A stretch of DNA of 19,757 nucleotides from Synergistaceae bacterium (GTDB lineage Bacteria > Synergistota > Synergistia > Synergistales > Aminobacteriaceae). Under the pieces are notes generated by a model. That model saw nothing but the letters and a program-made list of their open reading frames with translations. It ran no database searches and was not told the DNA's origin. Of this stretch, positions 2 to 19,407 are shown in pieces. A program made the translations under genes and the position numbers. The stretch is taken from positions 1-19,757 of the forward strand of contig JAISMH010000015.1 in assembly GCA_031276855.1 (NCBI GenBank), read 5' to 3'. Every line of letters starts with the position of its first letter. Position 1 is the stretch's first letter.

Positions 2-1108
2 ATCGAGGGCGCGGACGAGAGGGCGCGCGAGGACTGGACCACGATCGTCGGATGGCTCGGCGTCTCGGACGTCGATTTCTCGCGGCTGCCGTCTTCCGCG
101 GAAATAAACGCGCTGAGACAAAAGGAAACTTTGACCGCCGAGGAGCAGGCGAAAGTGGACCTCTGGAAACGCTGGAGGAACGCGCAGGAGAAATGGGCGG
201 CGGCTTTCGAGAAGTACCTCACGGAGGGCAGGGCGCCGACGGCCGCGCTGGCCCGCGCGTTCAAAAACTTCAAGAAGTGGCTCATCGACATTTATCGGGC
301 CGTCTCGAACATCGTCTATACCGACGCCGACGGGAACCGGCAGGCGTTCGAGATGTCGGACGAAATCCGGGGCGTCATGGACAGGCTGCTGGCCAGCGAG
401 GAGGAAATAGAGGCCTCGCGCGCCGTCCGGGAGTCGCGGGAACTGGCGGACGAGATGAAAAAACAGGGCATCCCCGACGACGCGACCGGGAGATACCGGG
501 AGCTTATCGAGCAAAGCGCGGAGAAGGCGAAGGCGAAACTGTTCCGCACGCTCATGGGCGAACTGAAGGACGAAAAACGCGCGGAGCTGGCCGAGCGCCG
601 GAAAGAAGCAAAAAAGCGGGCGGCGGGCGAGGTCTGGGGAATGCCGGAGTACAAGGCGCTGAAGCTGTTCCGCACGCCGAGAGACAGGGGCGGGCTGAGG
701 ATTTCCGTGCTCGACCTGACGGACATCTACGGCGACGAGGGCACGAAAAAGCTCCTGAACGAGCTGCCGTTCGGCGTCGCGGCCAACGACGGGATCGGAC
801 TGGAGGAGGCGGCGGAATTGGCCGGGTATCCGGCGGGAGAGGCCCTGCTGGAAGACCTGAAGAAGACGAAGGCGCTGGAGACGGCAATGACGGGAGTGGC
901 GCCGGAAAGAGTCGAGACGGTTCCGATTCGCACTAAAAGCGGGCGCGTTCTGCGCGGCGGGTATTACCCCGTAAGGTTCGACATCAGCAAAAGCTGGAAG
1001 GCCGAGACGCAGCTGAAAAGGGGGCGGCAGTGGTTCGCGGACCATCTGGAACAGCTTTTCATGAGCCTCAGCGAAAATCTGGTGACGGTTCCCGTGTGGA
1101 ACGCGTAG
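2..1108 (+). CDS. Hypothetical protein, 5'-truncated. The reading frame is open from the window edge (frame of position 2) and the first ATG is at 131. The visible part is Lys/Glu-rich and helical (…WKRWRNAQEKWAAAFEKYL…IYGDEGTKKLLNELPFG…). It is not FlgD or FliK.
   Basis: No stop codon between position 2 and TAG at 1106-1108. Codon usage matches the rest of the window. No recognisable flagellar motif. The composition resembles large polyvalent/phage-associated proteins, but that is only an impression. Confidence 0.55.
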   Translation: MEGADERAREDWTTIVGWLGVSDVDFSRLPSSAEINALRQKETLTAEEQAKVDLWKRWRNAQEKWAAAFEKYLTEGRAPTAALARAFKNFKKWLIDIYRAVSNIVYTDADGNRQAFEMSDEIRGVMDRLLASEEEIEASRAVRESRELADEMKKQGIPDDATGRYRELIEQSAEKAKAKLFRTLMGELKDEKRAELAERRKEAKKRAAGEVWGMPEYKALKLFRTPRDRGGLRISVLDLTDIYGDEGTKKLLNELPFGVAANDGIGLEEAAELAGYPAGEALLEDLKKTKALETAMTGVAPERVETVPIRTKSGRVLRGGYYPVRFDISKSWKAETQLKRGRQWFADHLEQLFMSLSENLVTVPVWNA

Positions 1109-1655: not shown

Positions 1656-3764
1656 ATGTTGAGATCGCTTATGACGGCGGTGACGGGCGTTCGGTCGCAT
1701 CAGACGATGCTGGACGTGACGGGAAACAACATCGCGAACGTCAACACCACGGGGTTCAAAAAAGACGCCACGATCTTTCAGGATCTTCTGTATCAGACGT
1801 CTCAGGGCGCCACGGGGCCGGGAGACGCGAGGGGCGGCGTCAACCCCGCCCAGGTCGGGTTGGGCGTGAAGGTCGGGGCCATCGAGACCATCCACTCGCA
1901 GGGCGGCGCCCAGTACACGGGCAACAAGTCGGACATGATGATCGAAGGGGAGGGCTATTTCGTCTTCCGCAACGGAATCAGCCGAATCTACAGCCGCGCG
2001 GGCAACTTCACGCTGGACGCCGACAAGAAGCTGGTGCACTCCGGGACCGGTTACGTGGTGCAGGGCTACGAGATGGTGCAGAACCCCGCGAAGGCCACGG
2101 AGTACATCAAGGCGGGCGACATCAGCGACATCGTCATCCCGATAGGCAAGGAAATGGAGGCCCGCGCGACAAGCGTCGTGGGGGTCAAGAACAACTTGGA
2201 CGCCACGAAAGACCCCTATCTGCCGATAGGCTACGCGGATATTGAGTATAGCGACGAAACCGGGCCCGCCAAGGTCAAGATCGGCGGTATTGAGTACGAC
2301 GTGAGTTTCAAGACGAATACTGCAGGCACAACCGCCGGCACAGGGTATCTGACTGTCAACTTGGCCACAGGCGGGACGCCAGTATCCATCCAGCTTAATA
2401 TGACGGGGATCAAAGATGGGAAACCTGTTTTGGGAATAGAGGGTGCTATGGGAACTCCACCCGTTGCTACTGTGACTTTGAGCGGTGGAACAACGGCCAC
2501 GGTAGCCTATAACAACGATACCGGTATTTTGAAACTGACAGATTCGACTACTGGCTCACGGACATTAGGAGCGACGCTTTGGGAAATCAACCTGAAGGAG
2601 AACATGAACTACAATGCGTCCAGCATTTCAGGTGTTGTTCCAGCCGCTCTCAACCCAGGAGGTGGGCAGACTTACAATTACAGCTTTATTACGGAGTTTA
2701 GTGAAAATGCTCTCAGCGGGTCTCCGGCGCAGCTTACAATCTGGTACTATGGAAGTTCTCCGGCAGACGCTACCAACAAAGATTTTGGAAAGCTCACAGC
2801 CCAAGTTTCGTTTAAGTCGGACGGTACATTCGATTCGGTGACACCCCTGACAGCGACTGCCGGCACAGGAACGTGGCCTACGTGGCTCACTGTTGACAGC
2901 ACCGATCCCACTAAACCAAACATGCTTCAGGTAGTCGTTTCGGAAAGCAATTCTTCCGTACTGGAGATGAAGGTCGCTAAAGATGCGACCGCTACTTCTT
3001 TCGATACGGTCAACCAGATCACGCAGGGCGGATTCGAGCAGACGAAATTGACGGTCTACGACTGCCAAGGGAACCCCTACACGATGGAAATCACGTTCAA
3101 GAAGCTGACGAAAGACCGCTGGCGGTGGGAGGCCTTCTTCCCGGAGAATCCCGAGCTTTTCAACGTGCCCCCGTCGGGGGAACTGAAGTTCGGCCCTTGC
3201 GGCAAACTCAAGTTTCCGAAGGACGGGGCGGACATCTACGTCCCCTTCTCCCTGCTCGGGACGAAGAACGAGACCATTCACCTGGACTTCAGCAACAAGT
3301 ATTTCAAGGGCGACGATTACGTCTGGGACACCGACGCCCTGGAGGGCCTGACGCAGTACGCCTCGGCCAGCACGGCGAAGGCCTACTATCAGGACGGCTA
3401 CCAGATGGGCGTCCTGAACAACTACACCGTGGGCAACGACGGAACGATCACGGGCATCTACACCAACAGCCAGACCCAGCCCATATACCGCGTGGCCCTG
3501 GCGCAGTTCGCCAACCCGATGGGCCTCGACAAGGTGGGCAGCACCATGTTCCGCGAATCGATCAACTCCGGCATGGCGCAGATCGACGCGGCGTCGGACA
3601 ACGGGTCGGGAACCATCGCCGGCGGCACGCTCGAAATGTCGAACGTGGATCTGACGGAGGAGTTCACGCGCCTCATCATCGCGCAGCGCGGCTTTCAGGC
3701 GAACACCCGGGTCGTGACGACCAGCGACCAGATTCTGGAAGAAGTCGTCAACCTGAAACGGTAA
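1656..3764 (+). CDS. flgE: Flagellar hook protein FlgE, long form (about 702 aa) with a large central insertion domain.
   Basis: N-terminus MLRSLMTAVTGVRSHQTMLDVTGNNIANVNTTGFK and C-terminus GTLEMSNVDLTEEFTRLIIAQRGFQANTRVVTTSDQILEEVVNLKR are the canonical flagellar rod/hook terminal segments. RBS GGGAGGG lies 8 nt upstream of ATG 1656. The track ORF starts at 1566, but the ATG at 1656 with an SD is preferred. Confidence 0.93.
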   Translation: MLRSLMTAVTGVRSHQTMLDVTGNNIANVNTTGFKKDATIFQDLLYQTSQGATGPGDARGGVNPAQVGLGVKVGAIETIHSQGGAQYTGNKSDMMIEGEGYFVFRNGISRIYSRAGNFTLDADKKLVHSGTGYVVQGYEMVQNPAKATEYIKAGDISDIVIPIGKEMEARATSVVGVKNNLDATKDPYLPIGYADIEYSDETGPAKVKIGGIEYDVSFKTNTAGTTAGTGYLTVNLATGGTPVSIQLNMTGIKDGKPVLGIEGAMGTPPVATVTLSGGTTATVAYNNDTGILKLTDSTTGSRTLGATLWEINLKENMNYNASSISGVVPAALNPGGGQTYNYSFITEFSENALSGSPAQLTIWYYGSSPADATNKDFGKLTAQVSFKSDGTFDSVTPLTATAGTGTWPTWLTVDSTDPTKPNMLQVVVSESNSSVLEMKVAKDATATSFDTVNQITQGGFEQTKLTVYDCQGNPYTMEITFKKLTKDRWRWEAFFPENPELFNVPPSGELKFGPCGKLKFPKDGADIYVPFSLLGTKNETIHLDFSNKYFKGDDYVWDTDALEGLTQYASASTAKAYYQDGYQMGVLNNYTVGNDGTITGIYTNSQTQPIYRVALAQFANPMGLDKVGSTMFRESINSGMAQIDAASDNGSGTIAGGTLEMSNVDLTEEFTRLIIAQRGFQANTRVVTTSDQILEEVVNLKR

Positions 3765-3802
3765 CGGACGGCCGGACGGCCGATAAATCGGGTAGGGCGG
3801 TA

Positions 3803-4036
3803 ATGATTGAACTTCACCGTTTGAATGGGGAGCTTTTTTGGCTGAATTCTGATATGATTGAGACCATCGACATCACGCCGGATACCGTGGTGCGTCTGGT
3901 CAACGGGCATCGTTACGTCGTGAGGGAAAACTGTCGAGATGTGAGGAACGCCATCGTGAACTTCCGGCGGGAGGCGGGGTATTCCTGCGTCCCGTTCGGG
4001 ATTCCTTTGGAAGCGGAGGACGGTCAGACGCGTTAG
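3803..4036 (+). CDS. flbD: Flagellar protein FlbD, 77 aa.
   Basis: MIELHRLNGELFWLNSDMIETIDITPDTVVRLVNGHRYVVRE matches the conserved FlbD N-terminus (MIxLTRLNGxxFxLNxxxIExIExTPDTVIxLxNGxKYVVxE). Its position directly after flgE is conserved. Confidence 0.85.
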   Translation: MIELHRLNGELFWLNSDMIETIDITPDTVVRLVNGHRYVVRENCRDVRNAIVNFRREAGYSCVPFGIPLEAEDGQTR

Positions 4037-4081: not shown

Positions 4082-4918
4082 TTGGCGGGCTCGAAAATTT
4101 TGTTCGGCCAGGGGGGGACGCAGGACTTGGATTTAACCACTGTCGTCGGATTTCTTATCTGTTGGATTCTCGTTATCGGCGGAATGGCCGCCGGGGGAAA
4201 CATTGCCGCCTATTACGACTTTCCTTCCATATTGATCACCGTGGGCGGATCGATAGGGGCCGTCGTCATCTCGCACCCGAGCGACATCCTGAAAACGGTG
4301 GGGGGCGCCATCAAGAACGCCTTTTTTTCCTCGGACCCCAACCTTCTCGGCATGGTGCAGACGATCGTGAGCTTCGCCGAAAAAGCCCGCAGAGAAGGGC
4401 TTCTCGCGCTCGAGGGCGATGTCGCGGAGCTGGACGACGAGTTTTTGCGCAAATCCATCCAGCTGGTGGTGGACGGCACGGATCCCGAACTGGTGAAGGC
4501 CATTCTGGACACGGAAATAGGCATTCTGGAAGACCGGCATTCCGCGAACAAATCCGTTTTCGACGCGACCGCCGAGCTCGCCCCTGCCTACGGGATGATC
4601 GGAACCCTGATCGGCCTCATCGCCATGCTGGGGAACCTTCAGGACGTCAGCGCCCTGGGGCCCGGCATGGCCGTCGCCCTGATCACGACGATGTACGGCT
4701 CCATGATGGCCAACATGCTCTGCATCCCGGTGGCCAAGAAGCTGGCCGCCCGCTCCTCCAAGGAAATCCTCTCCATGGAGCTGATGGTGGAGGGCATTCT
4801 GGCGATCCAGGCCGGCGAAAACCCCCGCATCGTCGAGGAAAAGCTGAAGGTGTTCCTGCCTCCGAAACTGAGGCACAACCTGGAGGACGCCCAGAAAGCG
4901 GAAAGAGGAGAAAAATAG
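4082..4918 (+). CDS. motA: Flagellar motor stator protein MotA (proton channel, 4 TM).
   Basis: TM segments VVGFLICWILVIGGMAAGG and the C-terminal plug/TM3-4 region YGMIGTLIGLIAMLGNL…ALITTMYGSMMANMLCIPVAKKL are typical of MotA/PomA/ExbB. The track start TTG 4082 has a weak SD. An alternative in-frame TTG at 4127 (LDLTTVV) is preceded by a G-run at 4111-4117, so the true start is uncertain. Confidence 0.88.
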   Translation: MAGSKILFGQGGTQDLDLTTVVGFLICWILVIGGMAAGGNIAAYYDFPSILITVGGSIGAVVISHPSDILKTVGGAIKNAFFSSDPNLLGMVQTIVSFAEKARREGLLALEGDVAELDDEFLRKSIQLVVDGTDPELVKAILDTEIGILEDRHSANKSVFDATAELAPAYGMIGTLIGLIAMLGNLQDVSALGPGMAVALITTMYGSMMANMLCIPVAKKLAARSSKEILSMELMVEGILAIQAGENPRIVEEKLKVFLPPKLRHNLEDAQKAERGEK

Positions 4919-7230: not shown

Positions 7231-8342
7231 TGGATAATCTGTTGAGCCAGGATGAAATAAACTCTCTTCTCGGCGGAGGCGACGCCCCTTCAGGCTCCGC
7301 GGGGCTTTCTATGGAAGACACGCAGATTCTGAACGAGGTCGCGAGCATTTTCTCGAACGCGGAGAACAACGTGTTCAGCATGCTGGCGGGCAAGGAGGTC
7401 AACTCCAAAGGCGGGGAGACCGAGGTTCTTTCTCAGGCGGAGTTCAAGGCGAAACTTGGCGCCGAGACGCCTTTCGTTTTCAGGGCGACCTTCGACGGCT
7501 TCGACGACGTGCCTTTGATTTTTGCCGTCGGGCGCCGCGGCGCGCTGGCGCTGGCCGATTTGATGATGGGCGGAGAGGGGAAGGACGTCCCCGAGGAGGC
7601 CAGCGAGCTTTACCTGAACGCGGCTCAGGAGGGATTGAGCCAGGTCGTGGGCTCCGCCTTCACCAGCCTGAGCGGCCTGATGGGCGGCCGCCGCCTGATG
7701 CCCGAAAACACGAAGTCCGCTTTGGAAGAGGAAGACGACTGGGCGGTATTTCCCGCCTTGGACGCCGAGGCCAGGGTGTGGGCCAGCTTCTCCGAGGTGG
7801 AAATAGAGGGGCTGGAGCCCTTCGCGATATGGGCCGCCATTCCTTTGGATTCCGTGAAAACCATGGCGGAGCTGATTCGTCAAAATATGGGAGGAGGGGA
7901 AAAGCAGCCGGAGTCCCCTTCTTTATCTTCTTCTCCGTCTCCCCAGGCGCCCCGCGCGGCTCAGGCGGCGGGCGCTTCGCCCGCTTCCGCTCCTTCGACG
8001 AGAGGCGGCCAGCGTCCCGGGCCCGTGACCGACGTGCGCCCCGCGGAGTTCACTCCCCTCTCGGCCAAGGGCCCGGCGGGGAGCGGCAGCAAGATCGACC
8101 TGATCGCGGATATTCCGGTGCGTGTCACCGTGGAACTGGGGAAGACGAGAAAAAATATCTCCGAGATCCTGGGCATGACGACGGGTTCCGTCATCGAACT
8201 GGACAAAATGGCGGGGGAGCCCGTGGACGTGCTCGTCAACGGAAAGCTGATCGCCAAGGGCGAGGTCGTCGTGATCGACGAAAACTTCGGAGTGCGCGTC
8301 ACCGAGGTCTTGGGCGCGGCTCCGAAGGCCTACGCGGTGTGA
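7230..8342 (+). CDS. fliY: Flagellar motor switch protein FliY/FliN, long form. FliM-like N-terminal peptide, middle domain, and C-terminal FliN/SpoA domain.
   Basis: N-terminus MDNLLSQDEINSLLGG (LSQxEIxxLL CheY-binding motif). C-terminus IPVRVTVELGKTRKNISEILGMTTGSVIELDKMAGEPVDVLVNGKLIAKGEVVVIDENFGVRVTEV is a canonical FliN. ATG overlaps the fliM stop (TGATG). Confidence 0.85.
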   Translation: MDNLLSQDEINSLLGGGDAPSGSAGLSMEDTQILNEVASIFSNAENNVFSMLAGKEVNSKGGETEVLSQAEFKAKLGAETPFVFRATFDGFDDVPLIFAVGRRGALALADLMMGGEGKDVPEEASELYLNAAQEGLSQVVGSAFTSLSGLMGGRRLMPENTKSALEEEDDWAVFPALDAEARVWASFSEVEIEGLEPFAIWAAIPLDSVKTMAELIRQNMGGGEKQPESPSLSSSPSPQAPRAAQAAGASPASAPSTRGGQRPGPVTDVRPAEFTPLSAKGPAGSGSKIDLIADIPVRVTVELGKTRKNISEILGMTTGSVIELDKMAGEPVDVLVNGKLIAKGEVVVIDENFGVRVTEVLGAAPKAYAV

Positions 8343-9151: not shown

Positions 9152-9197
9152 TGGCTGAGCTACGGGGGAAGTCGGTTTTACCGCTTATATTACGCGT

Positions 9198-9461
9198 ATG
9201 GCTCTGGCTCTTGCGGTGATGGCTGTCATTGCGGTCGCCGCTGTTCGTTTTGTCAAAAGCGGAGCCCGCGGAGGGCGGAGCGGGGCGCGTGTCGAAGTTA
9301 TGGCATCCTTGCCTTTGGGTAAGGATGTTTTTTTCGTTCTGCGGTGCGGTCCCGAGGTTTTTGCCCTGACATCCGGGCACGCGGGGACTCATCTGATAGG
9401 CAGGTGGAAATATGAAGAATGGCTTCGATGGGAAGAAAAGGAGAAGGCTTGCGAAAGCTGA
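9198..9461 (+). CDS. fliO: Flagellar biosynthesis protein FliO (FliZ of Bacillus), short form.
   Basis: One TM helix (LALAVMAVIAVAAV) followed by RVEVMASLPLGKDVFFVLRCGPEVFALTSGHAGTHLIG. This matches the FliO core (…ERVPLGPRESLVLVEVGGRVLVLGVT…). Its position between cheY and fliP is conserved. An in-frame stop at 9156 bounds the start, and the SD is weak. Confidence 0.55.
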   Translation: MALALAVMAVIAVAAVRFVKSGARGGRSGARVEVMASLPLGKDVFFVLRCGPEVFALTSGHAGTHLIGRWKYEEWLRWEEKEKACES

Positions 9462-10245
9462 GTCATTTTTCTTCTTCTGCTTTTTGACCGGTCTCGTCCT
9501 CGCGGTCTTTTTTGCCGCTTCGCCCGCCGAAGCCGCTTTTGTCGAGGAAGCGCCGAGAATACCCATTCCGCTTCTGCAGTTGGGCGTCGTCCCGGCGGAC
9601 TCCCCGCAGGATGTCGCCGTTTCCTTGCAGATACTGGCTCTTTTGACGGTGCTGACCCTGGCCCCGGCCATTTTGCTGATGCTGACGAGCTTCACGCGGA
9701 TCGTCGTGGTGCTGGGGTTCATTCAGCGCGCGATCGGTCTCCAGCAGTCGCCGCCCCAGCAGACCATCGTCAGCCTCGCCCTCTTCCTCGCCCTCTTCAC
9801 GATGTATCCGACGTGGAACCGCATCTACGAGAACGCCCTCGCCCCCTATCTGGCGAAGGAGATCGACTCCCCGCGGGCGTGGACGGAGACGATCACGCCC
9901 CTGAGGGAGTTCATGTTCCGTTACACCCGTCAGGAGGAGCTGTCCCTGATGGTCTCCATGGCGAACCTCGAACGCCCGGAGAACCGGGAGGAGGTTCCGA
10001 CGCGGGTTCTGATCCCCGCTTTCATGCTGAGCGAGCTCAAGACCGCTTTTCAGATGGGCGTGGTGATCTACATTCCCTTCATCATCGTGGACATGATCGT
10101 GTCGAGCGTCCTTTTGGCGATGGGCATGATGATGCTGCCCCCCATGATGATTTCTCTGCCGTTCAAGATCCTGCTCTTCGTGATGGCCGACGGCTGGAAC
10201 CTCGTCGTCGTGAGCCTTCTCAAGAGCTTCACGAACGTGCCGTAA
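9412..10245 (+). CDS. fliP: Flagellar type III export apparatus protein FliP.
   Basis: Signal peptide, then the conserved LTLAPAILLMLTSFTRIVVVLGFIQRAIGLQQSPP and C-terminal YIPFIIVDMIVSSVLLAMGMMMLPP motifs. AGGTGGA SD. Overlaps the 3' end of fliO by 50 nt. Confidence 0.92.
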   Translation: MKNGFDGKKRRRLAKAESFFFFCFLTGLVLAVFFAASPAEAAFVEEAPRIPIPLLQLGVVPADSPQDVAVSLQILALLTVLTLAPAILLMLTSFTRIVVVLGFIQRAIGLQQSPPQQTIVSLALFLALFTMYPTWNRIYENALAPYLAKEIDSPRAWTETITPLREFMFRYTRQEELSLMVSMANLERPENREEVPTRVLIPAFMLSELKTAFQMGVVIYIPFIIVDMIVSSVLLAMGMMMLPPMMISLPFKILLFVMADGWNLVVVSLLKSFTNVP

Positions 10246-10257
10246 GGGGGCGGGCTC

Positions 10258-10533
10258 ATGGACATCGTTCCGATCAACATGTTCGACATCTTAAACGAGG
10301 CGGTCTGGACGATGCTCCTCGTCACCATGCCCATTCTTCTGGTGGCGATGGGCGTGGGGCTCATTATCGGCATCGTGCAGACGGCGACGTCCATTCAGGA
10401 GCAGACGCTGATCTTCATCCCGAAGATTTTGGCCGTGTTTTTGTTCATCATCCTCGTCGGGCCCTGGATGGCCGACAAGATTCTGGGCATCACTCGGGAA
10501 ATTCTGGGGCACCTCGAGAGGTTCATTCAATGA
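10258..10533 (+). CDS. fliQ: Flagellar export apparatus protein FliQ.
   Basis: 91 aa with two TM segments. LLVTMPILLVAMGVGLIIGIVQTATSIQEQTLIFIPKILAVFL is the FliQ signature. Confidence 0.9.
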   Translation: MDIVPINMFDILNEAVWTMLLVTMPILLVAMGVGLIIGIVQTATSIQEQTLIFIPKILAVFLFIILVGPWMADKILGITREILGHLERFIQ

Positions 10534-10570
10534 ATCCAGTAAATCCAATGAATCCAGTAAATCCGATGAG
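10528..10570. repeat. 18-bp tandem repeat CAATGAATCCAGTAAATC, 2.4 copies, at the fliQ stop and in the fliQ-fliR spacer.
   Basis: Copies at 10528-10545 and 10546-10563 are perfect. A partial third copy is CGATGAG. Confidence 0.9.
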
Positions 10571-11436: not shown

Positions 11437-11500
11437 TATAAATTCGGTGGATATAAATTCGATGGCTATAAATTCGATGAATATAAATCCCGTGACTGAA
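11437..11500. repeat. 15-bp tandem repeat TATAAATTCGATGRN, 4 copies plus degenerate extras, in the fliR-flhB spacer.
   Basis: Units at 11437, 11452, 11467 and 11482. Each carries a TATAAAT box and an in-frame ATG or GTG. Confidence 0.9.
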
Positions 11501-11530
11501 TCGAGCGATATGAATTCTCGGCGGCCGTCG

Positions 11531-12631
11531 ATGAAAACAATCCCCCGTTTCGTTTTCGACATTCAATTCTTCGCCCAGGAGCGCACGGAGGCGGCGACGC
11601 CCAAGAAGCGCCAGAAGGTGCGCTCCGAGGGGAAGGTCTGCAAAAGCCGCGACCTGACCGCCGCCGTCGAAATTCTGACGGGCCTCGTGGGGCTCGTGAT
11701 GTTCGGGCCCTCGATCTTCGGCGGGCTCATCGACTATTTCCGCGAGATGATCGGGGTTCTGGGGGAGGAATCGCTTCTGCGGGCTGGCTGGTTTTACCGC
11801 CTGGAGTTCACGGCGCTCCGGGCCTACTTCGGCGCCTGGCTCCTGCCGGGGCTCCTCATCGCGGCCTTCACCACGGCCGTGACGGTCTATCAAATCGGCT
11901 GGGTCATCAGCTTCGAGCCTTTCAAATTCGACTTGAACCGCCTGAACCCCGTCTCCGGCATGAAAAAGATCATCTCCCTGCGCTCTCTCGTGGAGCTGCT
12001 GAAGGGGCTTCTGAAGGCCTCCCTCTTCGTCCTCGTCATCTATATCGCCATGCGGGACAAACTGCCCGCCGCCGTGTACGCGATGCAGCTTTCGATGGCG
12101 GCAGGGGCCCTGCTCTTCTGGAACCTGCTGTGGGACCTCTCGATGCGGCTGGCCGCGATGCTTTTGGTCATGGCGCTCGTGGACTACCTGTACCAAAAGT
12201 GGGATTATGAAAAGTCCATACGGATGAGCAAGCAGGAGGTCAAGGAAGAGTTCAAGCAGATGGAGGGCGACCCTCAGATCAAAAGCAAGATCCGCCAGAA
12301 ACAGCGGGAGCTCGCGAAGAAGAGAATGATGTCCTCCGTGCCCAAGGCGGACGTGGTCATCACGAACCCCACCACCCTGGCGATCGCTTTGGTGTACGAC
12401 CGCAAAATCATGGCCGCGCCTCAAATCACGGCGAAGGGCAAGGGCTTCGTCGCCCGGAAGATCCGCGAGCTGGCCGCGGCGCACGGGGTCCCCGTCATCG
12501 AAAACAAACCCCTAGCCTGGGCGCTTTACGAGTCCGCCGATGTGGGGGACGAGGTGCCGGAGAACCTCTACCGCGGCGTCGCCGAAATTCTGGCGATGGT
12601 CTACAAACTCGCCGGAAAACAGCCGTCTTAG
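11531..12631 (+). CDS. flhB: Flagellar export switch protein FlhB.
   Basis: N-terminus MKTIPRFVFDIQFFAQERTEAATPKKRQKVRSEGKVCKSRDL parallels Bacillus FlhB (MKLRVDLQFFAGEKTEKATPKKR…). The C-terminal autocleavage region contains NPTTLAIALVY, which carries the NPTH-like motif. The track ORF extends in-frame upstream to GTG 11447 through the 15-bp repeats. ATG 11531 is preferred by homology. Confidence 0.9.
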   Translation: MKTIPRFVFDIQFFAQERTEAATPKKRQKVRSEGKVCKSRDLTAAVEILTGLVGLVMFGPSIFGGLIDYFREMIGVLGEESLLRAGWFYRLEFTALRAYFGAWLLPGLLIAAFTTAVTVYQIGWVISFEPFKFDLNRLNPVSGMKKIISLRSLVELLKGLLKASLFVLVIYIAMRDKLPAAVYAMQLSMAAGALLFWNLLWDLSMRLAAMLLVMALVDYLYQKWDYEKSIRMSKQEVKEEFKQMEGDPQIKSKIRQKQRELAKKRMMSSVPKADVVITNPTTLAIALVYDRKIMAAPQITAKGKGFVARKIRELAAAHGVPVIENKPLAWALYESADVGDEVPENLYRGVAEILAMVYKLAGKQPS

Positions 12632-12752
12632 GGCCGTTTTCAGCCGCGGCGGATCTGCTTGGACGAGCCCTCTAATCGTTCACAAAGTTCTTGCGCGGAA
12701 GTCCCGCCGTATTGTAAGATAAAAATACATTATACACGGGGAGAGGGTCGTC

Positions 12753-14015
12753 ATGCGGAGAGCGGGAAGAAAAACGGATTCATGGGAGTTCCTGAAATTA
12801 AGGAAGCTCTTGAATTTCCTGAGGTTCATTAAATTTGCGGCGTGTTTTCTCTTCCTGTTTTCCCATCCCGCTCTCCCCGCTTTTTGCGCCGAGGCCGACA
12901 CGTCCCTTTGGACGTGGGACGTGCTGGTCATTCCCCCCGACGAGGGCTGGCAGAGCGAGAAAGGTCTTTCCGTTCAAAATGCGCTCCAATGGCACGCGGC
13001 CGAAATCTCGGAGAGCGGAGCCGGCATTCGGGGTCATGACCTCCGATTCGTCTTTCTCCCGCCCCTGACGGAGGACTCCGCGCGGAGTTTCGCCCTTCCC
13101 AACGACCCCCGCGCCGTCGCCGTCATGAGCTTCGCGTCGAACCCCGTGGACAGGGCGCTGGCGGATAGAGAACTGGCCGGCCGCTCCGCGGGAAGCGGGC
13201 TTCCCCTCTTCCTGGCCGGCGGAGAAAACGTTTCCCTCTTCGAGGGGAGCCGTCCTGTCCCGCGGCTTTTCGCCCTCGACCTTTTTCGGGACTACCGCTG
13301 TCAGGCTTTCGCGGATTACGCGTCGAAAATCGCGGCAAAAGACGCCCGGGTGGGCGTCATGGGCGCGCGGTTCACGCTCAACGAGGAACGCGAGGCCAAA
13401 ATTTGCTTCGACCTCTTCTCGGAAGCGGGTTTCATGCCCATGCCCTACTGGGTGGACGCCTCCGTGAGGGACTCCTTCTCCATGGTCGAACAGGAGATCG
13501 TCGACTACAGCAACGGCATTCTCATCAGCTACATCGGGAGCATGGGCACGAAGGAAATCTGGCGCGGCATCATGGGACACCAGTCCCCTTACCGGATCTG
13601 GTACGGCGGGGTTCCCGACAAATCCTTCCTTTCTTATAGAGGCATGATCTTCGCCGATCAGAACATGTATCTGGACGCGCTGGGGGGCTTTGAGCGGCTG
13701 AAGCGCGACCTGTGGTCGTCGCGCGCCCTGTCCGCCCCGGACAAGGTCGCGGCGGGGCGGGCCAACGCCCTCGCGTTCTGGCTGATTCAGGCCCTGAAGG
13801 CCCTTCCGGGCGATTTGGACAGCATCGACAGGAACGCGCTGCTTTCCCTTCTGGCCGAAGCGCGGGACATTCCCTTCGGCTCCCAGACGCTGAATATCGA
13901 CCGGGACACCCACCGCCCCGGAACGCGGCGGGTCTTCATCATGGAAATGCGCAACAGGAGCTTTTTTGTCCTGGACACCCTCGGCGTGCGGGGACTGAAA
14001 CACCGCGGCGATTGA
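12753..14015 (+). CDS. Secreted periplasmic-binding-protein-like protein (type I PBP fold, LivJ-like), Sec signal peptide. No adjacent ABC permease or ATPase.
   Basis: N-terminal hydrophobic signal sequence (FLRFIKFAACFLFLFSHPALPAFCAEA). Alternating beta-alpha pattern: VLVIPPDEGWQ…, VGVMGARFTLNEE…, ILISYIGSMG…. GGGGAGAGGG SD 6 nt upstream. The family assignment is by pattern only. Confidence 0.55.
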   Translation: MRRAGRKTDSWEFLKLRKLLNFLRFIKFAACFLFLFSHPALPAFCAEADTSLWTWDVLVIPPDEGWQSEKGLSVQNALQWHAAEISESGAGIRGHDLRFVFLPPLTEDSARSFALPNDPRAVAVMSFASNPVDRALADRELAGRSAGSGLPLFLAGGENVSLFEGSRPVPRLFALDLFRDYRCQAFADYASKIAAKDARVGVMGARFTLNEEREAKICFDLFSEAGFMPMPYWVDASVRDSFSMVEQEIVDYSNGILISYIGSMGTKEIWRGIMGHQSPYRIWYGGVPDKSFLSYRGMIFADQNMYLDALGGFERLKRDLWSSRALSAPDKVAAGRANALAFWLIQALKALPGDLDSIDRNALLSLLAEARDIPFGSQTLNIDRDTHRPGTRRVFIMEMRNRSFFVLDTLGVRGLKHRGD

Positions 14016-14164
14016 GTTTTAAGCTCAGGGGGGCGGAGCCAACAAAGAAAGTAAGCGATTCGCACAGCTCCTTCGTCGCTGGCTCTCTGCTTATCGTTCG
14101 CCCAAAAGCGGGCTCACTGGCCCCCCCGAACCCCCCTGTTTATTTAATTCGGAGGTCTTTTTTC

Positions 14165-14929
14165 ATGGAAGCAGGCGATATGACTACAGGCGTTGCGGAA
14201 CGGCTGGCGGAGTGCCTGAAAAAGAAGAAAACCGACTGCGTGACGCTGGGGAGCCTGCCCGTTTCGCTGAAAAGGCTGCTGACGGGGAAACCCAGGCCCG
14301 CCGCCGCCGAGCTCGAAAAATGCGCCACCCCGCACCTCGGGGAAAACCTGATGCTGAAACGGAGCGGGCGGTACGTTTACCTCGCGCTCCGGCAGCCCGA
14401 CGAGTCGCTGCTGCTCGGCATCCTTCGGAAGAGGGCCGGGAAGAGCCCCAGCGCGAACAACACCCCCTTCAGGAAAGAAGAATTCATCGCCGTCCTGAAC
14501 CGCCTGATCGAGCAGGGAAAAATCCTTGTCAGGCTCAACAAAGACTGCAAACCCCTCCTTTTCCCGATTCCGGCCCGGAGCCCGGAGGCCCCGGCCGGAG
14601 CGGAAAAAGCGGGCCTGAACGCAAATCTGAATATAAATCAGAATGCAAATCAGGAAGCGGGGCGGGAGAGCGTTTCCGCGGAGCGGTTCGAGAGCGCGTA
14701 CCGGGAGCTGGAAGGGGGGAAGTTCTTTGTCCGCGTCTGCGACCTCCGCCGCCGTCTGGGCTGGGGGCGGAAGGAGTTCGACGGGACGGCGGCCGCGCTT
14801 CGGGACGCGGGGAAAATCCAGCTGCAGTCCGGGGACACCGCCTACTTCAGCGAGCGGGACATCGCGGACAGCTTCATCGACGAGAACGGCTTTCGGATGC
14901 TCACCCTGATGTGGCTCGGGCGGACGTAG
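14165..14929 (+). CDS. Hypothetical protein (254 aa) with two globular halves separated by an Ala/Asn-rich linker. Each half resembles a winged helix.
   Basis: GGAGG SD 9 nt upstream of ATG 14165. GC3-rich codon usage typical of this genome. No recognisable catalytic motif. Linker …PARSPEAPAGAEKAGLNANLNINQNANQEAG…. Confidence 0.55.
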   Translation: MEAGDMTTGVAERLAECLKKKKTDCVTLGSLPVSLKRLLTGKPRPAAAELEKCATPHLGENLMLKRSGRYVYLALRQPDESLLLGILRKRAGKSPSANNTPFRKEEFIAVLNRLIEQGKILVRLNKDCKPLLFPIPARSPEAPAGAEKAGLNANLNINQNANQEAGRESVSAERFESAYRELEGGKFFVRVCDLRRRLGWGRKEFDGTAAALRDAGKIQLQSGDTAYFSERDIADSFIDENGFRMLTLMWLGRT

Positions 14930-14937
14930 CCCGGAGG

Positions 14938-14979
14938 AACGGGGCGCGTTCCACGCCGCCCCGTTAATTTGAAATTTTG
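14938..14979 (+). terminator. Candidate intrinsic terminator or attenuator between the 254-aa gene and the NTPase gene.
   Basis: 9-bp GC-rich stem AACGGGGCG/CGCCCCGTT (14938-14946 pairs with 14957-14965) with a 10-nt loop, followed by AATTTGAAATTTTG. The T-tract is interrupted. Confidence 0.35.
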
Positions 14980-15006
14980 AACCTGAGTGTTTTTCTGGAG
15001 ATGAAA

Positions 15007-16995
15007 ATGAGCGCTTTCGGGATTCGGGAACAGATTTTTCAGAACAACCCCTTTTTTTCCGGCATCGCCTCCGACCCTTGGGACAACACGGACCCCGACG
15101 TCCCCTCCCTGAACGAGGAAGCCTGCCGGCACCTCTGCGGGCTGGTTCTCGCCAAGAGCCGGAACCCCTGCGCGGCCTCGGCCGGGCTGATTCTGGGCGA
15201 GGCGGGGATGGGCAAGACGCACCTCCTGAAGCGCCTTCTGCGCTACGTTCGGAAGGAAGGCATCGCGGCGCTCTTCGCGTCCATCACTCCCCTGCCGGAC
15301 CCCGGCAGTCCCATGCGGCACCTCCTGCGGGAGATCGCCCTCGACCTGTCGGGCAGAGGGATCTACGAAGACAGGCGGACGAAGCCCCTGACGCGGCGGA
15401 GCGTCACCCAGTTCGACTATTTGCTCGACAAGGCCGCGGCGGCCTGCCGGAAGGACGAGGAGGACTCGAAACCGCGGACGGGCATTCTCCGCTTCCTGAG
15501 CGACCGCTTCCTGAGCGACCGCTTTCCAGGCGCCCGCCTTCCGGGCGCCCGCTTGCGGAGCGGCGCCGCGCTTCTTCGGGAGCGGTGCCGGGGTATTCAC
15601 CCCCGCCTGCTCGGGGCCGTGTTCGGCCGCTCCGACCCCCGCCAGCGGGAGGCCGTTCTGGAGTGGCTCGAAAACGGCGCCCGGGCGGAAGGGGAAGAGG
15701 AGGCGCGGAGGGTTCTCGTGTCCCTGGGAATGCTTCTGGAATACTGCGGAATGTCGCTGATCGTCTGCTTCGACCAGCTGGACGGGATGAGGGACGACGC
15801 CCTGATCACGGCGTTCGGGGACACCGTCCATTTTCTGGTGAACGACGTGAAGGGGATGCTGCCTCTGGCGTTCGTTCGGATGAACACGTGGAGCGACCGT
15901 TTTTCACGGCTCGATCCGGCCGTGACGCAGCGGCTTTCCGGGAACGAGATGTTCCTCTACGCCTGCACGCTGGAGCAGGCGCGGGAGCTCATCCGGGTCC
16001 GGCTCGAATCCCGCTTCAAGGGCGATACCGAGGAAAAGTTTCAATGGCTGATGGAGCGGCTGGAGGGGAAGCTGAAAGCGGGGTATTCTCCGCGCGCCGT
16101 GATCGAACTGGCCAACCGCGAAATCGTGCGCGAAAGAGAACCCGAAAAGGAGCCCCTTGAAAAAGACCCAATCGAAAGGGAACTCGCCGAATTGGCATCC
16201 CTCGGCGGAGAACCGCGCGGCGGCGAGCCGCGCAGCGAAGAACCCGCCGGAGAACCCTTTAATGTCTCGAATTCCTTCGATGTCTCGAATGCCTTTAATA
16301 TCCCGAATGCCTTCGATACCCTCGATTTAGTCGAGCCTTCCGATACCTCTTCGGCCGGCCCTTCTTTGACTGGCTCTTCTTTAACTGAAGACGGGCCGGG
16401 GGCGATTCTGGAAGTCTTCGCGGACGAATACCGCAAAGCGCGCAAAAAGGCGGACGCCGGCGTCAGGCGTTCCCCCGATCCCGAAAGCCTTGTCCGCGCC
16501 CTCGAAACCTGCCTGCTCTCCCGCGCGGACTTCACAGACGTCCGCCGCACGGAGGACGGCTACATCGCCCTGACGGCGCGGCGCGAGGGAGGCGGGGCCT
16601 GCGCCTTCATCGTCAGCACGCAAGAAAACCACCGCGCGGTCCAGACGGCGCTGGCGCGCGGGGTCTCCTTCCTGTGGGATCACCCCGACGGGGAATGCTT
16701 CTGCGTCGCCGCCGGGCGCCAGGATTTCAGACTCCGCAAAAATTGGCCGAGCGTGCAGAAAGAGCTGCAAAAATTTCTGGAGGCAAAGGGCACCGTCTTC
16801 TATTTGAACCGCAGACAGGCCGCGGCCTGGTACGCTCTGGCGGCCCTCCGCCTCGAGGTGGACAGGGGAAACATCCGGCTGCCCGCTCCCGACGGAAAAC
16901 AGCGCGCGGCCCAAATAGAGGACCTCGCGCTGTTCCTGAGACAGAGTTCTGAAAAAGACCTGCCGGAGTGGTGGGATGCGAAAAATGGATTGTGA
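15007..16995 (+). CDS. Large P-loop NTPase (AAA_16/STAND-like) with an uncharacterised C-terminal domain of about 250 aa and internal in-frame tandem repeats.
   Basis: Walker A LILGEAGMGKTHLLKRLL and Walker B-like LIVCFDQLDGMRDD. GGAG SD 6 nt upstream of ATG 15007. The track start is TTG 14977. Confidence 0.7.
   Translation: MSAFGIREQIFQNNPFFSGIASDPWDNTDPDVPSLNEEACRHLCGLVLAKSRNPCAASAGLILGEAGMGKTHLLKRLLRYVRKEGIAALFASITPLPDPGSPMRHLLREIALDLSGRGIYEDRRTKPLTRRSVTQFDYLLDKAAAACRKDEEDSKPRTGILRFLSDRFLSDRFPGARLPGARLRSGAALLRERCRGIHPRLLGAVFGRSDPRQREAVLEWLENGARAEGEEEARRVLVSLGMLLEYCGMSLIVCFDQLDGMRDDALITAFGDTVHFLVNDVKGMLPLAFVRMNTWSDRFSRLDPAVTQRLSGNEMFLYACTLEQARELIRVRLESRFKGDTEEKFQWLMERLEGKLKAGYSPRAVIELANREIVREREPEKEPLEKDPIERELAELASLGGEPRGGEPRSEEPAGEPFNVSNSFDVSNAFNIPNAFDTLDLVEPSDTSSAGPSLTGSSLTEDGPGAILEVFADEYRKARKKADAGVRRSPDPESLVRALETCLLSRADFTDVRRTEDGYIALTARREGGGACAFIVSTQENHRAVQTALARGVSFLWDHPDGECFCVAAGRQDFRLRKNWPSVQKELQKFLEAKGTVFYLNRRQAAAWYALAALRLEVDRGNIRLPAPDGKQRAAQIEDLALFLRQSSEKDLPEWWDAKNGL
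15490..15555 (+). repeat. In-frame 15-bp tandem duplications inside the NTPase gene (CGCTTCCTGAGCGAC x2 perfect, then CCRGGCGCCCGCYTK x2), encoding FLSDR-FLSDR-FPGARL-PGARL.
   Basis: Read directly. Confidence 0.9.
16201..16320 (+). repeat. In-frame block of 15-bp periodic repeats in the NTPase gene, encoding GEPRG-GEPRS-EEPAG and FNVSN-SFDVSN-AFNIPN-AFD.
   Basis: Read directly. Low-complexity linker between the NTPase domain and the C-terminal domain. Confidence 0.8.
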
Positions 16996-17018
16996 TTTAT
17001 AATTTATTATTTTATAAT

Positions 17019-17804
17019 CTACGGTTTGCGGAGCGCGTTTTCGACGAAGGGCTTCAGGAGGTCGATGGGGATGGGGAAGAAGGTGGTGGAGTTCCGCTCC
17101 CCCGCGATTTCGCGTATGGTCTGCAGGTAGCGCAGCTGCAGCGTCACGGGCGAGATCTCCATCTGCTGCGCGGCCTCGGACAGCTTGGCCGCGGCCTGCA
17201 GTTCGCCCTCGGCGGCGATGATCTTGGCGCGGCGCTCGCGCTCGGCCTCCGCCTGACGCGCCATGGCGCGCTTCATGCCCTCGGGGAGCTCCAGTTCTTT
17301 CACCTCGACGGCGCTGACCTTGATTCCCCACGGGTCGGTGCGTTCGTCGATGATCTTCTGCAGTTCGTGGTTGATTTTTTCGCGGGAGGACAGAACCTCG
17401 TCCAGCTCGACGGAGCCGACGACGGAGCGCAGGGTCGTCTGGGCCAGCTGGCTCGTGGCCTGAACGTAGTTCTCGACCTCCACGACGGAGTGCGACGGGT
17501 CCAGCACCCGGAAGTACACGACGGCGTTGACCTTGATGGGCACGTTGTCCTTCGTGATGACCTCCTGGACGGGGACGTCCATCGTCAAAATGCGGAGGTC
17601 GACGGTGACCACGCGGTCGATGACGGGAATGACGAACACGATGCCCGGCCCGCGGCTCCCGGCCAGGCGCCCCAGGCGGAAGATGACGACCCGCCTGTAC
17701 TCCGGTACGATTTTGACGGCGGAAGAAAACAGCAGCACCGCGATGAGCAAAACCCCAAACCAACTGCCGATGTTCGACAGTATCCCAAAGACGTCGACGA
17801 CCAT
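17019..17804 (-). CDS. SPFH/band-7 protein, stomatin-like (261 aa) with an N-terminal TM anchor.
   Basis: Minus-strand translation …[72 protein letters not shown]…[35 protein letters not shown] is canonical prokaryotic stomatin. ATG at 17802-17804 (complement) with a GGAGAG SD. The track merges it into a 638-aa ORF because of an open GC-rich frame upstream. Confidence 0.88.
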
Positions 17805-17816
17805 ATCCGAATCTCT

Positions 17817-17854
17817 CCTCTCATAATGACGGGCGCCTCTCATAATGACGGGGG
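17817..17854. repeat. 19-bp tandem duplication CCTCTCATAATGACGGGSG x2, immediately upstream (minus-strand sense) of the SPFH start codon. Each minus-strand copy contains CATTATGAGAGG.
   Basis: Copies at 17817-17835 and 17836-17854 with one mismatch. Confidence 0.9.
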
Positions 17855-17917
17855 CTTCCCGTACCCATGCGATTATACCCCATTCCCGCACCCTGTTCCC
17901 GACACCGCGCCCGCCGG

Positions 17918-19084: not shown

Positions 19085-19407
19085 TGCCGGTCCCCCCTGC
19101 CTCTCAGGCCCTCGAGATTGTGAATATGGACGTGCGCGCCTTTCGGGATGTACTCCGACGCGGCGCCGATCACCGAACCGTATTTCAGGACGTTCTCCCC
19201 CCTGCGAAAATCGCGCAGCGCGATCTTGTGCCCCGCGGGAACGGCCGTGACGGCCGTCAGCTCCAGCGGAGGCCCGTTTTCTCTCCGCGCCGCGATCCGC
19301 TCCCCCGCCGCCACATCGCGAATCACGACGGCAACGTCGTCCTTCGCCGCGACGCAATGCGCGTCCGCCTTCTCCATTTTTTTCATTCGCTCCATTTGCT
19401 CCATCAC
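19081..19407 (-). CDS. SAF-domain protein, the small subunit of the split UxaA-family dehydratase.
   Basis: …[21 protein letters not shown]…[45 protein letters not shown] matches the SAF/UxaA N-terminal domain. Several in-frame ATGs (M1, M2, M5, M8, M11) make the start uncertain. Confidence 0.75.

Follow-up and report, generated by a model that had tools for sequence, protein, structure and literature searches.

Hypervariable middle regions are well known in the subunits of flagella, and a dip in GC content within such a region is usually taken as a mark of horizontal transfer. In flagellin (FliC), the termini form the core of the structure, and the exposed middle is fast-evolving and mosaic in its history, as set out in the literature of Selander, Reeves, and Whittam. 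Conserved ends and a variable centre are likewise described for the flagellins of Salmonella and E. coli in a further account (PMC514894). In FlgE, from which the hook of Campylobacter jejuni is built, the variable parts lie on the exposed surfaces of domains D3 and D4, and contacts of D3/D4 strengthen the hook (PMC5097172); flgE of this species is also named as a recombination hot region in a passage of PMC4866539 that cites Luneberg et al. (1998). At the scale of whole genes, recombining bacterial genes are richer in GC at third codon positions (GC3), independently of selection on codon usage (Lassalle et al., 2015; PMC4450053).

The window analyzed here is a stretch of 19,757 nucleotides from a Synergistaceae bacterium (contig JAISMH010000015.1), and its flgE gene invites comparison with both systems. 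As in C. jejuni FlgE, the product is a long hook protein in which conserved D0–D2 domains are joined by extra outer domains, with a variable centre between conserved ends. It is like FliC of Salmonella and E. coli in being the subunit of a helical polymer with core-building ends and a fast-evolving middle; unlike enterobacterial FliC, it belongs to the hook and not the filament, the evidence for recombination is weaker, and the window holds no flagellin gene. An original prediction, made from the sequence before any database search, had described an AT-richer island in the centre of flgE and ascribed it to horizontal replacement of that domain or to diversifying selection on it; this interpretation as a whole is partly supported by the results below.

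The flgE Gene and Its Operon

The gene at 1656–3764 (forward strand) opens a flagellar operon and encodes a protein of 702 aa that is the flagellar hook protein FlgE by its Pfam domains, core fold, and operon context. Its Pfam matches all lie above the curated cut-offs: PF00460 (aa 7–35), PF22692 (aa 95–158), PF07559 (FlgE_D2; aa 448–582), and PF06429 (Flg_bbr_C; aa 656–700). The predicted core fold agrees with solved hook proteins, the best full-length Foldseek match being C. jejuni FlgE (5JXL, E 2.7e-21). Downstream of flgE lie flbD (3803–4036; GC3 0.68), motA, motB, fliL, fliM, fliY, cheY, fliO, fliP, fliQ, fliR, and flhB, and the order flgE-flbD-motAB-fliLMY-cheY-fliOPQR-flhB is identical in seven relatives. 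On the 5′ side of the start codon, conservation with relatives is limited to the last ~70 nt; a remnant of the short flgE paralogue was looked for upstream of flgE and none was found.

Three parts of the gene can be told apart, all on the forward strand. The N-terminal conserved part (1656–2207; codons 1–184) spans D0 and Dc as well as D1's N-terminal half, has a GC3 of ~0.78–0.97, and is 85–88% identical to the closest relatives. The compositional island (2208–3005; codons 185–450; GC3 0.54) encodes an all-beta outer insert that appears to be specific to Synergistota, and the C-terminal conserved part (3006–3764; codons 451–702; GC3 0.87–0.95) covers D2, D0, and the C-terminal half of D1. Hereafter, the FlgE of this window is referred to as WIN, the island segment as the centre, and the rest of flgE as the flanks; locus L091 is the locus of P0003.

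A Compositional Island Within flgE

Along flgE, GC3 in 40-codon windows falls from 0.85–0.97 to 0.42–0.57 between codons ~220 and ~440 and then returns to 0.88–0.95. A two-changepoint likelihood fit placed the island at codons 185–450 (nt 2208–3005), with a GC3 of 0.538 inside versus 0.892 elsewhere in the gene (Fisher p = 8.6e-26) and an LLR of 55.9, compared with a maximum of 14.4 among 200 codon shuffles. The interval first proposed, 2290–3000 (GC3 0.521 vs. 0.879 outside; total GC 0.506 vs. 0.607), sits within the fitted island, the lowest-GC3 core of which spans ~nt 2380–3000. Fourfold-degenerate sites are independent of amino-acid content, and at these sites GC drops from ~0.93 to 0.38–0.50 in the island; since this drop is equally large, amino-acid composition is ruled out as the cause of the dip. 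The prediction of an island within flgE is thereby confirmed. In the other genes of the window, 80-codon windows have a mean GC3 of 0.82 (sd 0.09), and the island lies 3–4 sd below them. On the right its boundary is sharp: it lies at codon ~449, the start of the conserved motif FDTVNQITQGG, and coincides with D2's first conserved residues. On the left it is gradual, with codons 185–241 at a GC3 of ~0.7.

Codon counts agree for the most part with what had been predicted: ACA (12 inside the island vs. 1 outside), ACT (12 vs. 0), and GGT (6 vs. 2) are frequent in the island, as is GCT (7 vs. 0), but GCA (2) and TTA (1), which had been named as frequent as well, are not. The two central peptides quoted in that prediction are both present in the FlgE translation. 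At fourfold-degenerate sites, base composition in the island (A.22, C.24, G.26, T.28) is near uniform, like that of the window's intergenic DNA (A.26, C.25, G.27, T.23; GC 0.507) and unlike the native codon usage of any sampled relative. Avoidance in the backbone genes of the window is stronger for codons ending in A than for those ending in T (.03 vs..10).

Homology and Structure of the Inserted Domain

The insert comprises ~265 residues, predicted to be all-beta. The short FlgE paralogue aligns to WIN at aa 6–186 and 462–702 and is without aa 187–461, so that the insertion point can be placed at the D1/D2 junction; the description of the segment as an inserted central domain is supported, the segment aligning with precisely the part that the paralogue is without. 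The insert would be exposed on the surface of the hook, to judge from its placement between D1 and D2 and from the Campylobacter analogy.

No Pfam family matched the insert at E ≤ 1, and no structural neighbor was found in the PDB, Campylobacter D3/D4 included; the insert does not resemble in structure the D3/D4 domains of FlgE from either C. jejuni or H. pylori, and sequence homology to epsilonproteobacterial D3/D4 was not found by phmmer against 1.84 billion representatives or in Pfam. With the centre as query, the exhaustive phmmer search of these representatives returned nine matches (identity ≤56%), of which three bear identifiers from the flgE search, two of them named FlgE in their source. 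A word-indexed search of 5.8 billion proteins with the centre alone returned three matches (identity ≤53%). Going by the matches shared with the flgE search (3/9 in the phmmer search), the insert is apparently confined to Synergistota-type FlgE. Within the 19.7-kb contig there is no second copy of the centre, that is, no direct or inverted repeat of 2208–3005 beyond chance-level 24-nt matches, and diversification by a DGR or from silent-copy cassettes was rejected for lack of such a repeat in the contig.

Relatives, Trees and Evolutionary Rate

The host clade is a small group of related Synergistaceae, probably from the gut; its members are present in JGI samples 3300042612–3300042652. Neighbor-joining trees with bootstrap place WIN inside {P0002–P0005} for the flanks (100% bootstrap) and for the centre (57%), with a similar topology elsewhere in the two trees. 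Congruent phylogenies of centre and flanks had been named in the original prediction as an outcome that would speak against replacement, and at the clade level the two are essentially congruent. The nearest relatives of the centre alone, which the original prediction had proposed to compare with those of the flanks, are the same: the best centre identities go to the same Synergistaceae FlgEs. Searches for a donor of the centre, among 5.8 billion and 1.84 billion proteins, turned up nothing closer than 53–56% identity, and the whole FlgE protein, run against JGI metagenome contigs, gave one locus, at 52% identity.

At the protein level, the centre evolves at about five times the rate of the hook core. 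To the closest relatives, the centre is 45–55% identical and the ends 84–88%; within the clade the figures are 50–71% and 84–89%, respectively; and the terminal branch of WIN measures 0.384 for the centre versus 0.069 for the flanks. The predicted hypervariability of the centre is thus upheld. Region-wide dN/dS (Nei-Gojobori) is 0.17–0.36 in the centre and 0.07–0.28 in the flanks, with a centre dS of 1.2–2.0, which is near saturation; diversifying selection on the centre is compatible with the data.

Codon Usage Across the Clade

The unbiased centre is common to all five clade members, which come from independent samples, whatever their own GC3: centre GC3 is 0.54 in WIN, 0.63 in P0002, 0.53 in P0003, 0.58 in P0004, and 0.56 in P0005, and the flanks of the same five proteins are at 0.72–0.89. 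A-ending codons make up.17–.22 of fourfold codons in these centres, and in the backbones of all sampled relatives, including those with the lowest GC3 (L082 and L087), A occupies ≤.11 of fourfold sites; no sampled backbone therefore matches the centre as a donor in composition. Correlations of relative synonymous codon usage (RSCU) were uninformative, all falling at 0.31–0.38 (0.38 with low-GC3 backbones, 0.37 with the window's own backbone). Excess codon identity among the five centres is 0.12–0.33, and this scarcity of shared synonymous signal implies that there has been ample time for amelioration, yet none occurred. With trees congruent at the clade level, no donor in the protein sets searched, a dip in 5/5 clade members, and intergenic-like codons, the proposal that the domain was replaced horizontally from a different source is not supported.

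More widely, flank-minus-centre GC3 is zero or positive in 22 of 23 long-FlgE loci, with marked differences between flank and centre in L085 (0.81/0.56), L091 (0.85/0.53), L086 (0.79/0.63), and L006 (0.78/0.46). The centres of L083, L087, L015, L005, L010, and P0031/P0033 are just as variable relative to their flanks and have the same GC3 as these; hypervariability alone is therefore insufficient to produce a dip, and a factor specific to the clade is needed. The repetition of high flanks and low centre in independent assemblies of other samples and studies (L085, L091, L086, and L006) also bears on an artifact of assembly, in which flgE ends of a high-GC population would have been joined to a centre taken from a lower-GC relative that occurred with it. 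The window makes up an entire metagenome contig, and the flgE ends are 85–94% identical in nucleotide sequence to the closest relative, so that short shared k-mers could exist; but the pattern recurs in those other assemblies, the left edge is a gradient over ~55 codons with no junction, and reading frame and predicted fold are intact, all of which makes a chimera highly improbable.

Signs of Mosaic Ancestry

Measured above expectation, synonymous codon identity in the centre falls far short of that in the flanks for WIN-P0003 (0.20 vs. 0.56), WIN-P0002 (0.12 vs. 0.40), and P0003-P0005 (0.21 vs. 0.48), and it is reduced for P0031-P0033 (0.37 vs. 0.61) as well. Overall, the centre is significantly more diverged at synonymous sites than the flanks in five of eight pairs, the four just named among them, and equal in three, the excess being absent for WIN-P0004, P0002-P0004, and P0002-P0005. 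Part of the excess synonymous divergence in the centre could stem from missing synonymous constraint. Between WIN and L085, the flgE flanks (0.46) fall among five backbone genes (0.40–0.47) and the centre is at 0.28, a gap of a factor of ~1.6 in −ln that is roughly as expected from release of synonymous constraint, for which a bound of a factor of two follows from our own calculation. In P0031-P0033, centre and flanks are equally GC3-rich, and codon constraint therefore cannot explain the lower synonymous identity of the centre in that pair. The heterogeneity of centre-versus-flank divergence among pairs hints at mosaic ancestry.

Recombination between homologues, which the original prediction had proposed to look for by a breakpoint test, was addressed with a home-made maximum-likelihood segment scan. 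One of six scans was significant (permutation p = 0.01) and five were not; in the significant one, the informative sites outside aa 128–530 group WIN with P0003 over P0004 in 75% of cases, and those inside in only 45%. Short patches of high synonymous identity occur inside the centre at aa 289–345 with P0005 and at aa 402–445 with P0002. For L082, the backbone stands at 0.18 versus 0.27–0.33 for flgE, and flank identity is 87% despite the most distant backbone, which indicates exchange of the whole flgE gene between lineages.

These mosaic signals make exchange of cassettes within the clade a live rival, and a possible one, though it does not carry our preference. It would have the flgE ends track, or be homogenized with, the host lineage and the centre come from a pool of old divergent alleles, swapped or retained independently as in Campylobacter flgE and enterobacterial flagellin; the centre of WIN would then derive from a member of the clade that lies outside the sampling and has a lower GC3. 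The low synonymous identity of the centre in the four pairs above, the significant scan for WIN with P0003 and P0004, the patches shared with different partners (P0005 and P0002), the whole-gene exchange indicated for L082, and the recombination hot region documented for C. jejuni flgE in the passage cited above (PMC4866539) all speak for it. Against these stand the congruence of flank and centre trees at the clade level, the non-significant scans (5/6), and the lack of any donor-like sequence in the very large protein sets searched. Composition is a further difficulty, as flat centres in 5/5 members would need repeated imports from donors without codon bias, whereas all sampled backbones avoid A-ending codons (A ≤.11 vs..17–.22 in the centres), and shuttling among these hosts should give their average bias, not zero bias.

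Regional and Site-Level Effects

The flanks are GC3-rich, as had been predicted, but the rest of the window, to which they had been likened, is not uniform: GC3 also dips in fliO (0.55), in the FliY linker (0.63 vs. 0.82), and over ~100 codons at the start of the last gene (0.41–0.5). In every lineage fliO has a GC3 of 0.49–0.56, and its protein is 61–72% conserved; low GC3 in this operon is therefore not always tied to fast protein evolution. Variable 30-codon windows of the operon (identity <30%) have a mean GC3 of 0.58. At the level of single sites, poorly conserved codons (≤20% identity to seven relatives) still have a GC3 of 0.77–0.83 in the flanks of flgE and in the remaining genes of the operon, and sites that are >80% conserved inside the island reach only 0.56. 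The dip is a region effect rather than a site effect, and site-level relaxation (of accuracy selection) was rejected as its main cause, the site-level effect elsewhere in the operon being only ~0.05. Within the island, GC3 is weakly correlated with local conservation (rho 0.39).

Codons might alternatively be chosen, or left unselected, for reasons of function: slowed translation, mRNA structure, or the absence of accuracy selection in a tolerant surface domain. The retention of a low centre GC3 in five clade members fits such a view, as do the higher fourfold GC at conserved than at variable sites of the island (0.63 vs. 0.41) and the low GC3 of fliO in all lineages, by which gene-specific codon regimes exist in the operon. 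It is nevertheless improbable. Accuracy selection predicts a site-level effect, which elsewhere in the operon is small; sister clades with the same domain show no dip, so the domain does not need unbiased codons; and an intergenic-like composition is the signature of no selection, not of selected codons. The type III apparatus exports FlgE in an unfolded state, and pacing of translation for co-translational folding would therefore be without obvious benefit.

Interpretation and Significance

The contrast looks like an old, maintained, lineage-wide local equilibrium and not like the unameliorated scar of a recent import. The reading we prefer, although its chances are only about even, takes the island for the outer domain added to a long hook protein of Synergistota type, inherited with flgE and escaping a force that raises GC3. 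On the data, the insert was inherited together with the rest of flgE inside a small Synergistaceae clade, and its synonymous sites behave as if neutral, with the base composition of non-coding DNA (~50% GC, the four bases near equal); the hook core and neighboring genes are kept at 82–89% GC3, A-ending codons being strongly avoided. As to the cause, the weak GC3-raising force of the genome, which may consist of codon-usage selection, of GC-biased gene conversion accompanying homologous recombination, or of the two together, would be ineffective inside a domain with highly divergent alleles and fast turnover. Two routes to this failure can be proposed. Recurrent selection on linked amino-acid changes may interfere with weak selection (Hill-Robertson interference); a negative link between amino-acid substitution rate and codon bias through interference is familiar from the Drosophila literature. 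Alternatively, homologous exchange, and hence biased conversion, may stop at the edges of the divergent segment. As all flgE codons share one expression level, the contrast cannot be due to expression. Besides the centres that vary without a dip and the low GC3 of fliO in all lineages, two further observations sit uneasily with escape from such a force: uniform release from constraint does not predict the pair-to-pair heterogeneity in synonymous divergence, and the centre has a dN/dS that stays well under 1.

GC3-rich conserved, presumably recombination-competent parts next to a divergent segment at the non-coding level resemble the pattern known for GC-biased gene conversion in bacteria; unlike the whole-gene scale of Lassalle et al. 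(2015), the contrast here lies inside one reading frame and has an edge a few codons wide. The stronger avoidance of A-ending than of T-ending codons in the backbone argues for codon selection besides or instead of biased conversion. Like a classical horizontal-transfer island, the segment has atypical GC and codon usage at high significance; unlike one, it matches the flanks in phylogeny and nearest relatives, the anomaly is clade-wide, and no sampled type of donor fits. A stronger version of the preferred reading, in which neutral composition outlasts synonymous turnover through blocked exchange and the outer-hook fold is new, acquired independently of epsilonproteobacterial D3/D4, is rather unlikely to hold in full.

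For composition-based island finding, the case counsels caution, in that intragenic dips can be long-lived equilibria. If the proposed mechanism holds, it would allow an estimate of the share of genome GC3 maintained by a force that needs conservation or recombination; if divergence blocks exchange, flgE would offer a natural experiment within one gene that sets recombination-dependent GC pressure against expression-level codon selection, and a direct read-out of mutational equilibrium in uncultured bacteria. As a domain that is apparently Synergistota-specific and lacks a relative of solved structure, the insert is a candidate for reinforcing the hook or for interactions at the surface in gut-associated Synergistaceae. 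Conserved patches in the insert include GATLWEINLKENM and FIxEFxE.

A Low-GC3 Island Encodes the Central Domain of FlgE

Third-position GC (GC3) of the window's flgE (1656–3764, + strand) is 0.85–0.97 at both ends and 0.42–0.57 in the middle, and a two-changepoint fit delimits an island at codons 185–450 (nt 2208–3005), with GC3 of 0.54 within it and 0.89 in the rest of the gene, the flanks (LLR 55.9 vs. ≤14.4 in shuffles; Fisher p = 8.6e-26). The low-GC centre originally predicted at 2290–3000 is real and strong, with a re-measured GC3 of 0.52 vs. 0.88 for that interval; the other genes of the window average 0.82 (sd 0.09; 80-codon windows). At fourfold-degenerate sites GC falls just as far, from ~0.93 to ~0.43 in the centre, which rules out amino-acid content as the cause. 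The right edge is sharp and lies at codon ~449, the first residues of the conserved D2 motif FDTVNQITQGG; the left edge is a gradient across codons 185–241. Such a gradient, together with the intact flgE reading frame and predicted fold and the recurrence of the high-flank, low-centre pattern in independent assemblies, makes chimeric assembly an unlikely source of the dip. Within the island, GC3 tracks local conservation weakly (rho 0.39): it is high in GATLWEINLKENM, the most conserved patch, but not in KLTAQVSFKSDGTFD, another conserved one.

The island was correctly assigned to an inserted central domain, matching the stretch missing in a short FlgE paralogue, whose gene directly precedes the long flgE in two relatives; because this paralogue aligns only to aa 6–186 and 462–702, the island is an insert at the D1/D2 junction. 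Pfam recognizes four FlgE core modules, none between aa 158 and 448, and the insert alone matches no Pfam family even at E ≤ 1; solved FlgE structures match the core only (≤333 aligned residues). The insert forms a confident all-beta unit in an AlphaFold2 model (112 homologues; pLDDT ~90 in context, 79 with pTM 0.76 when modelled alone). It is a real, conserved domain: G290, E347, F348, W363, G390, F392, and other insert residues are invariant or near-invariant across 112 long FlgEs. Searched exhaustively, 1.84 billion representative proteins yielded only nine relatives of the insert, three of which carry identifiers from the whole-FlgE search (two of these named FlgE at source). The closest analogues are C. 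jejuni FlgE, with a hypervariable, recombining central region whose variable parts lie on exposed D3/D4, and the enterobacterial flagellins, with their central antigenic domain; the window's flgE shares their architecture and fast-evolving centre, but its insert is a different domain, without sequence or fold similarity.

The short flgE (relatives' loci L083, 8446–9735, and L084, 19–444; 429 aa, P0064) retains all core domains and lacks the central insert; with this second gene, the L083 and L084 genomes could build hooks either carrying or lacking the outer domain. Neither a copy nor a remnant of the short gene is present in the window.

Tests of Foreign Replacement and Recombination

Horizontal replacement of the centre from a different lineage, one of the two origins originally proposed, is unsupported as stated, since centre and flanks share their nearest relatives and their trees are congruent. 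The same proteins, P0002–P0005, are nearest for both regions, at 45–55% identity in the centre and 84–88% in the flanks; searches with the centre alone found no relative above 53–56% identity, and among more distant relatives identity declines in parallel in the two regions. Bootstrapped neighbor-joining trees group the window with P0002, P0003, P0004, and P0005 both times (flanks 100%, centre 57%), with the remaining topology similar and a terminal branch for the window that is 0.384 long in the centre tree, as against 0.069 in the flank tree. Diversifying selection, the other proposed origin, is possible yet unproven: region-wide dN/dS is 0.17–0.36 in the centre and dS is near saturation, values that neither demonstrate nor exclude it.

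Synonymous divergence in the centre is significantly above that of the flanks for the window paired with P0003, P0002, or P0005 and for P0003–P0005 and P0031–P0033, and is not above it for window–P0004, P0002–P0004, and P0002–P0005. Part of the excess, by our estimate up to a twofold rate difference, is expected if the centre is neutral and the flanks constrained. The heterogeneity among pairs, together with P0031–P0033, in which both regions are equally GC3-rich, suggests some mosaic history. Of six partner comparisons in a maximum-likelihood segment scan, one reached significance (aa 128–530, p = 0.01), and within the centre short stretches differ in the partner to which their synonymous identity is high.

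Between the window and the related locus L085, excess codon identity (synonymous codon identity above codon-usage expectation) is 0.46 in the flanks, 0.40–0.47 in five backbone genes (other genes of the flgE operon), and 0.28 in the centre; as flanks equal backbone, this pattern fits vertical descent. No backbone among the six relatives is more distant than that of L082 (0.18 across ten operon genes), but L082's flgE is among the closest (flanks 0.33, centre 0.27; flank amino-acid identity 87%) and its flbD sides with flgE (0.28; L082 10001–12255 vs. window 1656–4036), which indicates that the flgE(-flbD) segment was exchanged horizontally as a whole between lineages. A local template- or cassette-driven mechanism is disfavoured by the lack of a second copy of the centre within the contig.

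A Probably Old, Segment-Level Lack of Codon Bias

The centre is unbiased in all five members of the clade formed by the window's FlgE and P0002–P0005, each from a different sample (GC3 0.53–0.63; A-ending fourfold codons.17–.22), and flank GC3 lies between 0.72 and 0.89 in the five, following the GC3 of their own operons; in P0008, P0009, P0013, P0031, and P0033, from other clades, centre bias equals flank bias. Excess codon identity among the five centres is only 0.12–0.33, so their synonymous sites have largely been replaced since the common ancestor; under flank-like pressure the centre would have ameliorated, and these comparisons are evidence that the dip is likely old and maintained. The window's centre carries no donor signature, since its fourfold sites are nearly flat (A.22, C.24, G.26, T.28) and resemble intergenic DNA of the window (A.26, C.25, G.27, T.23; GC 0.507): the signature is the absence of bias. 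None of the sampled relatives' native genes is as flat, the lowest-GC3 backbones still having A.11. The distinctive feature here is clade-wide, neutral-like codon usage, not a demonstrable transfer.

Site-by-site relaxation is ruled out as the main cause, as poorly conserved codons in other genes and the flanks have GC3 of 0.77–0.83, ~0.05 under conserved codons, and island sites with >80% conservation still have 0.56. The dip is a segment-level effect, and weaker forms are common: flank-minus-centre GC3 is at least 0 in 22 of 23 long-FlgE loci and typically ~0.1, the window's 0.35 being the largest. Poorly conserved contiguous 30-codon windows in other operon genes have a mean GC3 of 0.58, a statistic slightly inflated by the longest ORFs of motA (4082–4918), flhB (11447–12631), and fliP (9412–10245), which run 20–40 codons beyond the relatives' N-termini; these unconserved extensions (GC3 0.43–0.63) are probably over-extended starts or a fliP–fliO overlap. 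The Pro/Ser/Ala-rich, indel-rich linker of FliY (aa 195–265, ~7812–8024) has GC3 of 0.63 vs. 0.82 in the remainder, and dips in the same direction in relatives (difference 0.05–0.11).

Translational-efficiency selection cannot explain a contrast inside a single mRNA. A-ending codons are avoided more than T-ending ones in the backbone (.03 vs..10), implying that codon selection acts there to some extent alongside plain GC pressure; both preferences are gone in the centre. We infer that weak forces fail to shape synonymous sites in the insert domain. Recurrent selection on linked amino-acid changes could interfere with these forces; alternatively, highly divergent alleles could block homologous exchange and hence GC-biased conversion, which accompanies such exchange (Lassalle et al., 2015; PMC4450053). 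Both routes are possible.

Operon Context and Other Compositional Patches

The window is a complete JGI metagenome contig of 19,757 bases, and the relatives identified for flgE and the operon are MAGs of Synergistaceae/Synergistales; several have names that suggest an animal- or insect-gut origin. On the forward strand, flgE is followed by flbD (3803–4036), motA, motB, fliL, fliM, fliY, cheY, fliO (~9159–9461), fliP, fliQ, fliR, and flhB, an order that matches, with flhB last, in the DNA of each of seven relatives; flhA is missing after flhB in the window and all relatives compared, the operon stopping at flhB. GC3 of fliO is 0.55 in the window and 0.49–0.56 in every relative compared (L082, L083, L084, and L088), with neighbours at 0.6–0.85; hypervariability does not explain this conserved low-GC3 regime, which is specific to the gene (protein 61–72% conserved).

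Upstream, an ORF at 2–1108 (+) is cut off by the left contig edge, its stop codon 548 nt from flgE; within PHROG 9880, a giant protein of phages or mobile elements with unknown function, it matches only the middle (profile positions 990–1259 of 2231). The spacer at 1109–1585 (GC 0.52) is conserved with none of the relatives compared, and conservation upstream of the flgE start is limited to the last ~70 nt. This ORF and the unconserved, low-GC spacer suggest a rearrangement or insertion directly upstream of the operon. Synteny is also broken directly 3′ of flhB (12632–17960), where a conserved ~265-aa gene with no Pfam family, found in L082, L083, L084, and L088, is absent from the window; the window has, in its place, a 420-aa ORF (12753–14015; no family) and a 672-aa ATPase ORF (14977–16995; AAA_16/AAA_22).

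The minus-strand altronate/galactarate dehydratase-like gene (17918–19474) has GC3 of 0.41–0.5 in its first ~100 codons, which have no Pfam match, and ~0.8–0.9 in the remainder; with the adjoining contig end (~19175–19757, GC 0.50), this could be a further compositional patch, a misplaced start codon, or a junction. Tandem direct repeats lie at 16256–16309 (3 × 18 nt), 17817–17854 (2 × 19 nt, 95% identity), and 10525–10560 (2 × 18 nt, 94% identity), the last spanning the fliQ stop and the fliQ–fliR spacer.
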